NCBI GenBank assembly: GCA_963844035.1
Contig: CAWJMT010000005.1
Location: 1-64,000, forward strand
Source: an uncultured Gemmatimonadales bacterium
Lineage (GTDB): Bacteria; Gemmatimonadota; Gemmatimonadetes; Gemmatimonadales; GWC2-71-9
Length of the DNA: 64,000 bases
Reading direction: 5' to 3'
Part shown: positions 36,461-42,197 of the stretch, in pieces
Position numbering within the stretch: position 1 is the first letter of the stretch
Layout of the letters: every line of letters starts with the position of its first letter
Program-made: the position numbers and the translations under genes
The notes under the pieces: generated by a model
Database searches by the model: none
The model's input: the letters and a program-made list of their open reading frames with translations, nothing else
Told to the model about the DNA's origin: nothing

Positions 36461-36485
36461 CGGGGGAATTTTGCCTGGAGCCGGA

Positions 36486-37683
36486 GTGACTCACGCGAAG
36501 GGTTTCGCCGCACGCCTGGACAGCCTGGGGACCGAGTCCGCCTACGTGGTTTTGGACGCGGCCCGGAAGCTCGAGGCTGCGGGCCATCGTGTCGTCCATC
36601 TCGAGATCGGCGAGCCGGATGTGCCGACGGCTCCGCACGTCATCGAGGCGGGGATCCGGGCCCTGCGTGAGGGGCGTACCCGGTACGCGGTGGCGGCCGG
36701 GGTGCCCGAGTTCCGCGACGCCATCGCCCAGGCGATGGTGCCGCGCGGTGTTCGCGTTGCGGCCGAGAACGTGATCGTCACGCCGGGCGCGAAGCCGATG
36801 CTGTTCTGCGCGGCGCTGGCGCTCATCAACCCGGGTGACGAGGTGCTGTGCCCCAACCCCGGGTTCCCGATTTACGAGTCGGTGGTGCGCTTCGCTGGTG
36901 GCAAGCCGGTCTACTACCCATTGGACAAGACGCGGGGCTTTGCGCCCGACGTCGCCGCGATCGCGGCGCTCATCACGCCCCGCACCCGCGTGATGATCCT
37001 GAACCTGCCCGCACAACCCGACCGGCGGCATGGCGACGCCGGATGACCTCGCGCGTCTGGCGCAGCTGGCCGAACGGCACGACCTGTGGGTGATCAGCGA
37101 CGAAGTGTACTGGCACATCACCTACGGTCCACACGCGAACAGCATCGCCGCGCTCCCGGGTATGGCGCAGCGGACGGTGATCGTGGATGGATTCTCGAAG
37201 GGCTACTCAATGACCGGGTGGCGGCTCGGTTACGGGGTGATGCCGAAGGCCCTCGCGGGTCCGATGACCACGCTCATCATCAACAATCTCTCCTGCACCG
37301 CGACGTTCGTGCAGTACGCTGGGCTCGCGGCGCTGCAGGGTCCCCAGGACTCCGTGTTGAAGATGGTCGCGGGACTGAAGACCAAACGCGATCTGGTGAT
37401 TGCCGGCCTGAACGCGATCGACGGGGTGACTTGTGCCTCTCCTGCCGGTGCGTTCTACGCGTTCCCGGACTTGAGCGGGTTGCTCGAGCGTACAGGCCTG
37501 TCGTGCGAATCCTTCGCGGAGCGGCTGCTCTCCGAAGCGCACACGGCTGTGCTCGCGGGGACGGCTTTTGGGTCGGCTGGGGAAGGGCACCTGCGCCTGT
37601 CATATGCGAATGAGCCCGCCAACCTCGAGCTGGCGCTCGAGCGGATCCGGAGCTGGGTCGGGAGCCTTGCCGCCGCGGTCTAA
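36486..37683 (+). CDS. Class I/II PLP-dependent aminotransferase; frameshift near 37010
   Basis: LEIGEPD, VTPGAK, SDEVY, GFSKGYSMTGWRLG, GAFYAFP. Confidence 0.92.
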
Positions 37684-37692
37684 CGGGGGCGC

Positions 37693-37720
37693 TTGACGCG
37701 CCGCGTACCCGGGCTATGTT
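37693..37720 (+). promoter_or_regulatory. Sigma70-type promoter
   Basis: TTGACG-16 bp-TATGTT upstream of the riboswitch. Confidence 0.6.
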
Positions 37721-37740
37721 TTCACGCACAATCGTTGTGC

Positions 37741-37788
37741 CGTGGTGATTTGCCGCGTATTGCCGCCACGTTAAATAAAGTGCTAAAA
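37741..37788 (+). ncRNA. SAM-II (SAM-alpha) riboswitch aptamer
   Basis: CGTGG-TGATTT-GCCGCGTA-TTGC-CG-CCACG-TTAAAT-AAAGT-GCTAAAA: P1 CGTGG/CCACG, ATTT/AAAT pseudoknot, and the conserved TTGC and GCTAAA. Confidence 0.85.
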
Positions 37789-37795
37789 TGCGATC

Positions 37796-37829
37796 GCCCG
37801 CGGCATTACTTGCCCGGGCCATTTTTTTT
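37796..37829 (+). terminator. Intrinsic terminator in the riboswitch expression platform
   Basis: GCCCGCGGCA-TTACT-TGCCCGGGC followed by T8, about 10 nt before the ATG. Confidence 0.8.
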
Positions 37830-37838
37830 GAGGGTGCC

Positions 37839-39125
37839 ATGCCTGCCTCCACGAAGGTCGATAGCGTGAACCTCGGCGCCAAGACGACGCGCCCGGCGGC
37901 GCCTAGGGCGCTGCCGCAACGTTGCCGCAACTGCGGCACGGAGCGGGCGCCGGCCCCGGAGTCCCTGTGCGGGGAATGTCTCGGACCGCTCGACCCCATC
38001 TACGACCCGAAGCGCTCTCTTCCCGATCGTGCGACGATTGCGGCACGCGCGCCCTCTCTCTGGCGCTACCACGAGTGGCTGCCGTTCGAAGGGGACCCGG
38101 TGTATTCGCTGGACAGCGGGTTCACCCCCCTGCTCGACGCGCCCAGGCTGGCGCGGCGGCTCGGCGTGGCCCGTGCCTGGATCAAGAACGACACCGTGTG
38201 CCACCCCTCGCTGTCGTTCAAGGACCGGGTCGTGGCCGCGGCGATCAACGCCGCGGCGGCGTTCGGGCTCGACACGATCGGCTGCGCCTCGACCGGCAAC
38301 CTGGCGAACGCGGTGGCGGCGCACGCGGCGCGCAACGGGCTCACCGCCTGGGTGTTCATTCCCGAGGATCTCGAAGCCGGGAAGGTCTACGGCACGAGCA
38401 TCTACGGCCCCAAGCTGGTGCGCGTCCGGGGCACATACGACGACGTCAACCGCCTGTGCGCGCAGGTGGCGGACCGGTTTGGGTGGGGCATCGTGAACGT
38501 GAACCTGCGGGGATACTACGCCGAAGGATCGAAGACGCTGGCGTACGAGATCTCCGAGCAGCTCGGGTGGCGGTTGCCCACGGCCGTGGTGGCGCCGATG
38601 GCGGGTGGATCGCTCGTCAACAAGCTCCGCAAGGGGTTCGGAGAGTTTCTGGAGGCCGGGCTGGTGAGTGGCCCCTCGCCTCGGTTGTATGGGGCGCAAG
38701 CATCCGGGTGCGCGCCGATTGTGCGGATGGTAGAGAGCGGCGGTACCCAGATCGTACCCGAGATCCCGCACACCATTGCGCGCTCGCTCGCGATCGGTAA
38801 CCCGGCGGACGGTGTGTTCGCCGCCAAGGCGATGCGGGAGTCCGGTGGTTGGGGGGCGAAGGTGAGCGATGAGGAACTAGTGGCCGGGATGCGACACTTG
38901 GCGGAGGACGTCGGAGTGTTCGGCGAGACCGCCGGTGGCGTCACCGTGTCGGCGGCGCTCGCGCTGGCTCGCGCCGGCCGGCTCCGGCCGGACGATGAAG
39001 TCGTGCTGTGTATCACCGGGCACGGGCTGAAGACACTCGAAGCGGTGAGCGGTGTGCTGCCCGAGGCACCCGTGATCGCGCCGCGGTTGCGCGAGGTGGC
39101 GGCGTTGGTGGAGGCGAGTGGGTGA
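37839..39125 (+). CDS. thrC: Threonine-synthase-family PLP enzyme, possibly O-phosphohomoserine sulfhydrylase
   Basis: N-terminal CxxC...CxxC, PSLSFKDR (PLP lysine), CASTGNLA, EGSKT, SLAIGNP. Confidence 0.85.
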   Translation: MPASTKVDSVNLGAKTTRPAAPRALPQRCRNCGTERAPAPESLCGECLGPLDPIYDPKRSLPDRATIAARAPSLWRYHEWLPFEGDPVYSLDSGFTPLLDAPRLARRLGVARAWIKNDTVCHPSLSFKDRVVAAAINAAAAFGLDTIGCASTGNLANAVAAHAARNGLTAWVFIPEDLEAGKVYGTSIYGPKLVRVRGTYDDVNRLCAQVADRFGWGIVNVNLRGYYAEGSKTLAYEISEQLGWRLPTAVVAPMAGGSLVNKLRKGFGEFLEAGLVSGPSPRLYGAQASGCAPIVRMVESGGTQIVPEIPHTIARSLAIGNPADGVFAAKAMRESGGWGAKVSDEELVAGMRHLAEDVGVFGETAGGVTVSAALALARAGRLRPDDEVVLCITGHGLKTLEAVSGVLPEAPVIAPRLREVAALVEASG

Positions 39126-39155
39126 TGGAACACGTTGCAGGCGGGAGGTCATGAG

Positions 39156-39431
39156 ATGGCGATCACGGTGAATTTGCCTTCGGTGCTGGCGGCTCACGCA
39201 GGCGGCGCGCGCAGCATCGAAGCCACGGGGCGGACTCTCGGCGAAGCGGTCGCGGATGTGGCGGCGCGCTTTCCAGCGCTCGGGCCCAGGCTGCAGGACA
39301 AGGACGGCAAGCCGTATCCGTTCGTGGTGTTCTATGTGAACGACGAGGACGTGCGCTTTCGGGGAGGGTTCGCCGCCACCATCAACGACGGCGACGAGGT
39401 GACGGTTATCCCTGCGATTGCGGGCGGGTGA
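39156..39431 (+). CDS. MoaD/ThiS-family sulfur carrier protein
   Basis: Ubiquitin-like protein with YVNDEDVRF and a C-terminal PAIAGG. Confidence 0.92.
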   Translation: MAITVNLPSVLAAHAGGARSIEATGRTLGEAVADVAARFPALGPRLQDKDGKPYPFVVFYVNDEDVRFRGGFAATINDGDEVTVIPAIAGG

Positions 39432-41613: not shown

Positions 41614-42030
41614 TTACTGGCAGACCGGTGCGCCTTCCGGCGACGCGGCGGTCGCCGGAGCCGTCGGCGTCACCGCGCCGATGTAGATGCCGCAGCTCTT
41701 CGACGTGTTGACATTGGTGACGTTCGTCGTCCAACCCGCCTGCGTACCGACACCGGTCGTCACCGTGCCCAGCGTGTTGCCGGTCGTCGTACAGTACGAG
41801 ACCGAACCCGCCGGCGCCGGATTGGCGCACGAAATGGCCGTGGTGTACTTGATCGAGTCGGCGAAGTACGCCTCCTCGGCGGTCACCAGGTTGCGCAGAT
41901 CCGACTTCATGGAGGCGATGTACGCCTTTTCCTTCGTGTTGGCGAACTTCGGGATCGCGATGGCGGCCAAGATGCCGATGATCACCACGACGATCAACAG
42001 CTCGATCAGTGTGAAACCCTTGCGATTCAT
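41614..42030 (-). CDS. pilA: Type IV (IVa) major pilin
   Basis: MNRKG/FTLIELLIVVVIIGILAAIAIP prepilin motif with E5; four cysteines. Confidence 0.93.
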   Translation of the reverse strand: MNRKGFTLIELLIVVVIIGILAAIAIPKFANTKEKAYIASMKSDLRNLVTAEEAYFADSIKYTTAISCANPAPAGSVSYCTTTGNTLGTVTTGVGTQAGWTTNVTNVNTSKSCGIYIGAVTPTAPATAASPEGAPVCQ

Positions 42031-42110: not shown

Positions 42111-42197
42111 TCCCTGGCAGCCGGGCTGTCTCGAGATTGGACCGAGACCCCTAGCTTTGCGTCCCGCCGTCACCGACGGTTTGCCCCATGCAGAGAC
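42111..42197 (-). ncRNA. Cyclic-di-GMP-I (GEMM) riboswitch
   Basis: Reverse complement GGGCAAACCGTCG-GTGA-CGGCGGGACGCAAAGCTAGGGGTCT...AGACAGCCCGGCTGCC: GEMM hallmarks with a GNRA loop. Confidence 0.92.

Follow-up and report, generated by a model that had tools for sequence, protein, structure and literature searches.

The window analysed here, a 64,000-nucleotide stretch of DNA from an uncultured Gemmatimonadales bacterium, contains a pair of forward-strand genes preceded by a short leader. The first gene (37839-39125, +) encodes a PLP enzyme of the ThrC family (TIGR00260, 240 bits) with a Cys-rich, zinc-ribbon-like stretch at its N-terminus. Its best solved relative is the threonine synthase 1uim (5.4e-52), and its closest relatives, at 69-84% identity, are all labelled Gemmatimonadales, Gemmatimonadaceae, Gemmatimonas or Gemmatimonadota. 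The second gene (39156-39431, +; its start is uncertain and the open reading frame opens at 39135) encodes a MoaD/ThiS-type sulfur-carrier protein that ends in Gly-Gly; along its entire length this protein resembles CysO of Mycobacterium tuberculosis (3dwg_C, 1.1e-25). The leader in front of this pair holds a SAM-II aptamer, a hairpin followed by a run of U residues and a ribosome-binding site, and the relationship between the first two of these elements is the main subject of this report.

Elements of the leader and its surroundings

A consensus scan places a promoter-like TTGACG, followed after a 16-nt spacer by TATGTT, at 37693-37720 (+; 9 of 12 matches). A transcript from this site would start near 37727, probably a few bases 5' of the aptamer, and TTGAC...TAnnnT-like motifs are likewise visible 5' of the aptamer in relatives. 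Behind the aptamer RNAfold predicts a terminator hairpin at 37796-37819 (+) of 9 bp with one bulged C and a 5-nt loop, composed of the 5' arm GCCCG-C-GGCA (37796-37805), the loop UUACU and the 3' arm UGCC-CGGGC (37811-37819), with a folding energy of -16.2 kcal/mol. The 3' arm is followed by CA and then by a tract of eight U residues, read from the sequence as T8 at 37822-37829 (+). The segment 37782-37830 as a whole folds at -19.3 kcal/mol (z = -3.25), a value equalled by 1 of 200 shuffles. A first-pass annotation, made by a model from the letters of this DNA, had described a terminator with T8 behind the aptamer, and hairpin and U tract are both in place. A simple consensus terminator scan did not list the hairpin at 37796-37819, because the bulged C interrupts its stem. 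The ribosome-binding site GAGGG (37830-37834) and the start codon ATG (37839-37841), read from the sequence and together spanning 37830-37841 (+), come next; in relatives, too, GAGG, 5-7 nt and ATG stand straight after the U tract.

Small shares of the stretch were found in 20 runs, 6 of them recorded as RNA. Three contigs from the four RNA libraries examined span the terminator (37687-37840, 37754-37904 and 37785-38006), and one of the three begins 5' of the predicted transcript start. These contigs are compatible with read-through and say nothing firm about termination, because contigs carry no RNA ends and libraries of this kind may contain DNA.

Upstream of the riboswitch, a class I/II aminotransferase (36471-37683, +) is split into two overlapping open reading frames in different frames, 36471-37046 and 37030-37683, one matching the N-terminal and the other the C-terminal half of the same families; the split reflects a frameshift or else a fault in the assembly. 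One relative (L024) has a member of this aminotransferase family directly behind a SAM-II leader of its own. Elsewhere in the window, a c-di-GMP-I-GGC variant riboswitch (RF03167, 61.1 bits, cut-off 59) at 42112-42194 (-) precedes by about 80 nt an open reading frame (41614-42030, -) for a type IV pilin-like protein whose N-terminus reads ...GFTLIELL.... The window starts with a partial 16S rRNA gene (1-622, -), for which cmscan fits model positions 1-1142 into just 622 bases by skipping large blocks in the 5' part. These skips may be an alignment artefact of a truncated match, or they may reflect an unusual or misassembled 5' region.

A SAM-II aptamer common in Gemmatimonadota

In a cmscan search of the window, the Rfam model RF00521 (SAM_alpha) matched 37732-37806 (+) with 40.7 bits, above its gathering score of 36 and along the whole model (positions 1-79 of 79). 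Searching the whole window gives an E-value of 9.6e-6, and searching the 301-base region only gives 4.5e-8; in that region RF01726 (SAM-II long loop) stayed below its cut-off of 44 with just 20.5 bits, and no SAM-V match came up at E<=10. A search with the SAM_alpha covariance model was the check that the first-pass annotation had named for its claim of a complete SAM-II aptamer, and this above-threshold, full-length match bears the claim out. We conclude that the aptamer is a real, complete and ordinary member of the SAM-II class. Its core comprises 37741-37793, and the unstructured 3' tail of the model reaches into the 5' arm of the terminator.

The alignment structure line of cmscan defines the P1 hairpin as 37741-37746 (CGUGGU) paired with 37765-37770 (GCCACG) on the forward strand; L1 (GAUUU) and the 5' strand of P2 lie inside it. 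P1 is paired in 100% of 109 related short-loop aptamers, and covariation says little about it because five of its six pairs never vary. The P2 pseudoknot joins the 5' strand at 37754-37763 (+; P2a 37754-37758, P2b 37760-37763) to the 3' strand at 37782-37792 (+), GCUAAAAUGCG, which includes the conserved GCUAAA and was placed by cmscan together with the alignment of relatives. The RF00521 covariance model leaves this pseudoknot unscored, and it was judged through the alignment of the 109 aptamers (alignment A2). There, 78% of the P2 cells are paired, a share that drops to 25-51% with the partners slid out of register, and five pairs show changes on both sides. In the columns 15-53, which correspond to C37754-G37792 in the window, the 109 aptamers have GC 51 times, CG 37, AU 4, GU 4, UG once and other combinations 12 times. 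The covariation score of P2 is 0.100 compared with a shuffled mean of 0.063, and none of 500 shuffles reached it. L1, the A-rich L3 (UUAAA) and GCUAAA align to the consensus at high posterior probability and are invariant or nearly so among relatives; these elements have roles in the triplex and in the contact with SAM. The loop of the window aptamer is short, with 8 nt where the Rfam consensus has about 12.

The aptamer is far from isolated in its lineage. A sample of 41 relatives, which includes the genome of the window, has RF00521 matches in 34 genomes, and a sample of 151 Gemmatimonadota genomes taken across the phylum has them in 107, with 101 over the cut-off; by family, the counts are 65/71 (f1), 31/31 (f2), 1/16 (f7) and 0/13 (f10). 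On the strength of these frequencies among relatives and across the phylum, we regard SAM-II as the normal SAM sensor of the order. Our literature search found nothing linking SAM-II to Gemmatimonadota, although figures or supplements of the distribution papers may list the phylum; the string 'Gemmatimon' is absent from the accessible text of the review by McCown et al. 2017. The description of the lineage as unexpected therefore holds for the papers found and fails for the genomes, 107 of 151 of which carry the aptamer.

SAM-II aptamers have been described as coupled to terminators since 2005 and 2007 (PMC1273637, PMC2258182), and the accessible part of Scheuer et al. 2022 (PMC9373788) adds the metZ leader of Sinorhizobium meliloti, a SAM-II of the terminator type. 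In the leaders compared here, a hairpin with a U-rich tract within 100 nt occurs in 181 of the 198 unique parsed leaders among all those fetched, in 89 of 95 unique leaders from the window plus loci L001-L140, and in 60 of 68 leaders parsed from the first 80 metagenome loci, with loci lacking a pattern-recognised aptamer excluded from all counts. The premise of the first-pass annotation that SAM-II usually acts by occluding the ribosome-binding site finds no support in these reports or in the 181 leaders; it mirrors metX, a well-studied case that reviews class among the direct-occlusion switches. Two relatives (L062 and L011) have leaders without a terminator. In L062 the start codon lies directly 3' of the P2a 3' strand and in L011 GGAG takes that place, an arrangement that suggests that the same aptamer has moved to translational control in some lineages.

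Comparison with well-described members of the class places the window leader in this setting. It belongs to the same RF00521 family as the metA motif of Agrobacterium tumefaciens (Corbino et al. 2005, PMC1273637) and, as far as the accessible text of PMC9373788 describes it, the metZ riboswitch of S. meliloti, and it has in common with both an intrinsic terminator and a predicted OFF logic. The layout of promoter, P1, P2 pseudoknot, terminator and methionine-pathway gene is also that of these proteobacterial leaders, from which the window leader differs in its short 8-nt loop and in its host phylum. With the metX SAM-II it has in common an H-type pseudoknot, the conserved L1 and GCUAAA and a P2 that is dynamic without SAM. 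However, in metX the ribosome-binding site lies inside P2, and the switch is treated as translational direct occlusion, whereas in the window this site lies beyond the terminator.

Proposed pairing between the aptamer loop and the terminator arm

The first-pass annotation had pointed out that TGCCGCG and CGCGGCA are exact reverse complements, and they are. In the RNA, UGCCGCG (37751-37757, +), the proposed 5' strand of an antiterminator, is the exact complement of CGCGGCA (37799-37805, +), the proposed 3' strand, which lies in the 5' arm of the terminator and includes its bulged C37801. The 5' strand overlaps the P2a 5' strand at 37754-37757, and when RNAfold is run on the window leader with P1 held formed, 37751-37757 pairs with the terminator 5' arm. 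Taken from the window sequence alone, this complementarity is not beyond chance: the duplex energy of -14.2 kcal/mol was reached by 147 of 2000 dinucleotide shuffles of the target. The support for an antiterminator comes from related leaders, in which the complementarity is kept with compensatory changes.

In the classical design, the 3' strand of P2 pairs with part of the terminator. This arrangement is clear in many relatives, with 8-11 bp in L012, L020, L022, L054 and L108. We sought it in the window and it is absent there, with a duplex of -6.4 kcal/mol and a local fold of -4.6 kcal/mol (z = +0.25). The same genome has a second SAM-II aptamer (contig C32, 39069-39143; locus L001, 1501-1603; RF00521, 44.9 bits) in front of a homocysteine S-methyltransferase (metH-like) gene, with a hairpin and a U-rich tract immediately 5' of the ribosome-binding site. 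The two copies belong to a common family and both have the hairpin and U-rich tract, but only in the C32 copy does the terminator contain a partner, CGGCUUUU, for the P2 3' strand AAAAGCCG (8 bp, -10.9 kcal/mol, z = -2.5). Since the C32 copy has the classical antiterminator and the window copy lacks it, one genome holds both wirings.

To compare leaders, we grouped them solely by loop sequence, kept P1 formed and folded each nascent RNA as far as the terminator loop; the metagenome contigs in this sample are without taxonomy. Of the 62 GCC-loop leaders, among them the window leader, 49 paired their terminator 5' arm with the loop strand, 1 with the P2 3' strand or spacer, 5 with the arm itself and 1 with the 5' flank, and in 6 the arm had no partner; in total, 13 of the 62 lack loop pairing even with P1 held out. 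The 42 leaders with GCG loops gave the loop strand in 2, the P2 3' strand or spacer in 12, self-pairing in 8 and no partner in 20. In the window leader the terminator pairs with the P2a 5' strand of the loop. The 53 metagenome leaders with long loops (at least 10 nt, Rfam-consensus-like) differ: their terminator 5' arm mostly takes the P2 3' strand or spacer (37 leaders), 9 take the loop strand and the remainder have other outcomes.

A search for runs of complementarity gave a similar division. When the loop 8-mer was compared with the 45 nt downstream, a run of at least 6 complementary bases was present in 86% of 64 GCC-loop leaders against 32% of non-cognate loop/terminator pairs, while for GCG loops the figures were 26% of 46 leaders and 30% of non-cognate pairs.

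Compensatory change was assessed with an anchored count on 61 unique leaders with the loop GCCGC-X, the anchor being the five pairs that GCCGC forms with G[C/U]GGC. Where X is G (n=42), the opposite base is C in 36 leaders and U in 1, with no anchor in 5; where X is C (n=14), it is G in 11 and C in 2, with no anchor in 1. The four leaders with A at this position have a mismatched C in 3 and no anchor in 1, and the single leader with U has G. Fisher's test gives p = 2e-9 with relatedness ignored, and the leader counts overstate the number of independent events because the sequences are related. The two exceptions with C opposite C are the GCCGCC leaders L084 and L232, and L065, L083 and L088 retain just four pairs. 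Other loop types carry complements of their own: UGCCCG with CGGGCA (L069, L080, L102), GGAGGC with GCCUCC (L137) and UCGAGGC with GCCUCGA (L031). The leader of L069, whose record is labelled Gemmatimonas aurantiaca, is of the GCCCGC type. The C that is bulged in the terminator stem is conserved in the GCC-loop class and would be properly paired in the antiterminator. Altogether these observations in related leaders indicate that the switching strand is probably the loop strand of the aptamer.

The anchored count replaced an analysis of antiterminator covariation in fixed columns, which was dropped because MAFFT shifts GGCGGC targets by 1-2 columns relative to CGCGGC, so that the target had no fixed place in the alignment. 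A matrix of energies by loop type (diagonal -12.7 against off-diagonal -8.1; 2 of 5040 permutations) was discarded as evidence because the group had been chosen by the same energy.

Proposed regulatory logic and the methionine pathway

We think it likely that the leader is a SAM-II transcriptional OFF switch with a loop-strand antiterminator acting on the two-gene operon of the ThrC-like and CysO-like proteins. The OFF logic proposed by the first-pass annotation is supported as a reading and agrees with the methionine-pathway genes that follow. Computation shows the aptamer, the pairings of P1 and P2, the hairpin with its U tract and the complementarity with its conservation and covariation in relatives; from these features we infer that SAM binds, that transcription terminates and which strand is the antiterminator. 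We envision a scenario in which transcription begins near 37727 and the P1 hairpin forms first. With SAM bound, the loop strand 37754-37763 would be locked onto 37782-37792 as the P2 pseudoknot, CGCGGCA would be left free, the terminator hairpin would form, and the polymerase would release at U8, just 5' of the ribosome-binding site. Without SAM, P2 would be dynamic and UGCCGCG would pair with CGCGGCA, an alternative pseudoknot that would engage the terminator 5' arm in its upper half and allow read-through into the metM-like and metO-like genes. The two states are mutually exclusive because they overlap at 37754-37757, and the choice between them must be kinetic because the terminator is thermodynamically stronger than the antiterminator. 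Probing of the metX SAM-II, as given in the accessible text of PMC10907184, found P1 formed with or without ligand and L1 and P2 exposed without SAM.

The same OFF switch could employ a different antiterminator, in which, without SAM, the P1 5' strand and its 5' flank (37737-37749) would pair with 37793-37806 and break P1, as happens in many P1-sharing riboswitches. This is the minimum free energy structure when RNAfold is left free on the nascent RNA (-24.5 kcal/mol to 37806, -26.5 kcal/mol to 37810), CCGUGG is complementary to CCGCGG, and among the 62 GCC-loop leaders folded freely, 13 have the P1 5' strand or flank as partner of the terminator 5' arm and 8 have the loop strand. However, the invariant CGUGG of P1 needs CC[A/G]CG in the terminator arm, and leaders with GCCGCC, GCCCGC, GGAGGC and CGAGGC loops do not have this sequence, yet they do have the complement of their own loop. 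The extra flank pairs are peculiar to the window sequence, and the metX P1 is formed in both ligand states in the accessible text of PMC10907184. We therefore consider an antiterminator built from P1 unlikely and favor a model in which the loop strand is the one that switches.

It is also conceivable that the hairpin and U8 form a constitutive attenuator outside the control of SAM, with the riboswitch acting through translation, Rho or RNA stability. A role of this kind has been proposed for the terminator 3' of the S. meliloti metA riboswitch, and the accessible text of Scheuer et al. 2022 (PMC9373788) reports a validated terminator behind a SAM-II aptamer for which no riboswitch-driven antiterminator was predictable. 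The contigs from three RNA libraries that span the terminator would agree with such an attenuator as well, as weak evidence. But the ribosome-binding site of the window leader lies 38 nt past the P2 3' strand, outside every aptamer helix, and a SAM-independent terminator gives no reason for a complementarity between loop and terminator arm that is conserved with compensatory changes. We judge this explanation highly improbable. That the leader is instead an ON switch, in which the pairing of loop and terminator 5' arm extends P2a of the SAM-bound fold and SAM prevents termination, seems to us scarcely credible: covariation shows that the pairing matters and not in which state, but the family consensus places the P2a 3' strand directly after GCUAAA, with a proximal pairing that covaries across loop classes, the spacer of about 10 nt would break the coaxial stack of P2a and P2b, and methionine-synthesis genes switched on at high SAM would be physiologically senseless.

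A model in which the loop strand switches can be extended to relatives. The short GCC-loop SAM-II leaders that are common in Gemmatimonadota might use a 'pseudoknot swap' as their expression platform, a generalization that we hold with no more confidence than doubt. In such a swap the P2a 5' strand would change partner, pairing with the proximal P2 3' strand when SAM is bound and with the terminator 5' arm when it is not. Two platform logics would then have evolved on one aptamer scaffold. We found no description of a loop-strand antiterminator in the accessible portion of the literature searched. The window leader is a member of a known riboswitch class with a known mechanism, in a phylum where it is routine but has apparently not been written up, and its wiring is slightly unusual.

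MetM, MetO and MoeZ constitute a methionine route in Streptomyces, according to Table 2 of PMC13759103, which cites Hasebe et al. 2024 for it. As in that route, a ThrC-family enzyme, here a candidate MetM (sulfur-carrier-dependent homocysteine synthase), stands beside a Gly-Gly carrier of the ThiS/MoaD type, a candidate MetO. A ThiF+rhodanese (MoeZ-type) gene is adjacent in relatives, directly upstream of the orthologue in all 4 tested, and control by SAM fits a role in methionine synthesis. The genome contains two further ThrC-family loci, on C4 (189.3 and 64.5 bits) and C3 (147.1 bits), one of which may be the housekeeping threonine synthase, separate from the candidate MetM. The pair is likened to Streptomyces MetM/MetO by family, gene neighbourhood and riboswitch, its activity being predicted, and on these grounds it probably serves homocysteine synthesis of the MetM/MetO kind.

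Other SAM-II leaders of the phylum precede genes for homocysteine methyltransferase, MTHFR, a Cys/Met PLP enzyme and class I/II aminotransferase, and also for homoserine dehydrogenase, GHMP kinase and PanB-like proteins, in a survey of downstream genes to which 27 open reading frames were submitted and in which 23 had a Pfam match. A GHMP kinase that is possibly a homoserine kinase (L136:1613-2548) and a homoserine dehydrogenase (L108:362-1432) lie behind such leaders. These two targets fit a predicted methionine route via O-phosphohomoserine. In several Gemmatimonadaceae a gene of the PanB family (PF02548, 315-336 bits; L084:390-1454, L099:454-1404, L111:611-1507 and L034:355-1464) is either the first behind a SAM-II leader or just upstream of a metM-like gene, a placement that would put a PanB-like enzyme of a methionine operon under SAM control.

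These findings leave the understanding of the SAM-II class itself unchanged. They do identify SAM-II as the standard SAM sensor of this soil phylum, a role that goes unmentioned in the accessible text of riboswitch-distribution papers. If the proposed wiring is true, the loop-strand antiterminator would be a second way to couple an H-type pseudoknot aptamer to a terminator, and the leader of about 100 nt would be a compact natural example for studies of kinetic switching. For the organism, the riboswitch would mark the ThrC-like and CysO-like pair as repressed by SAM, and such repression would provide independent support for a methionine route of the MetM/MetO type in Gemmatimonadota rather than for a second threonine synthase.
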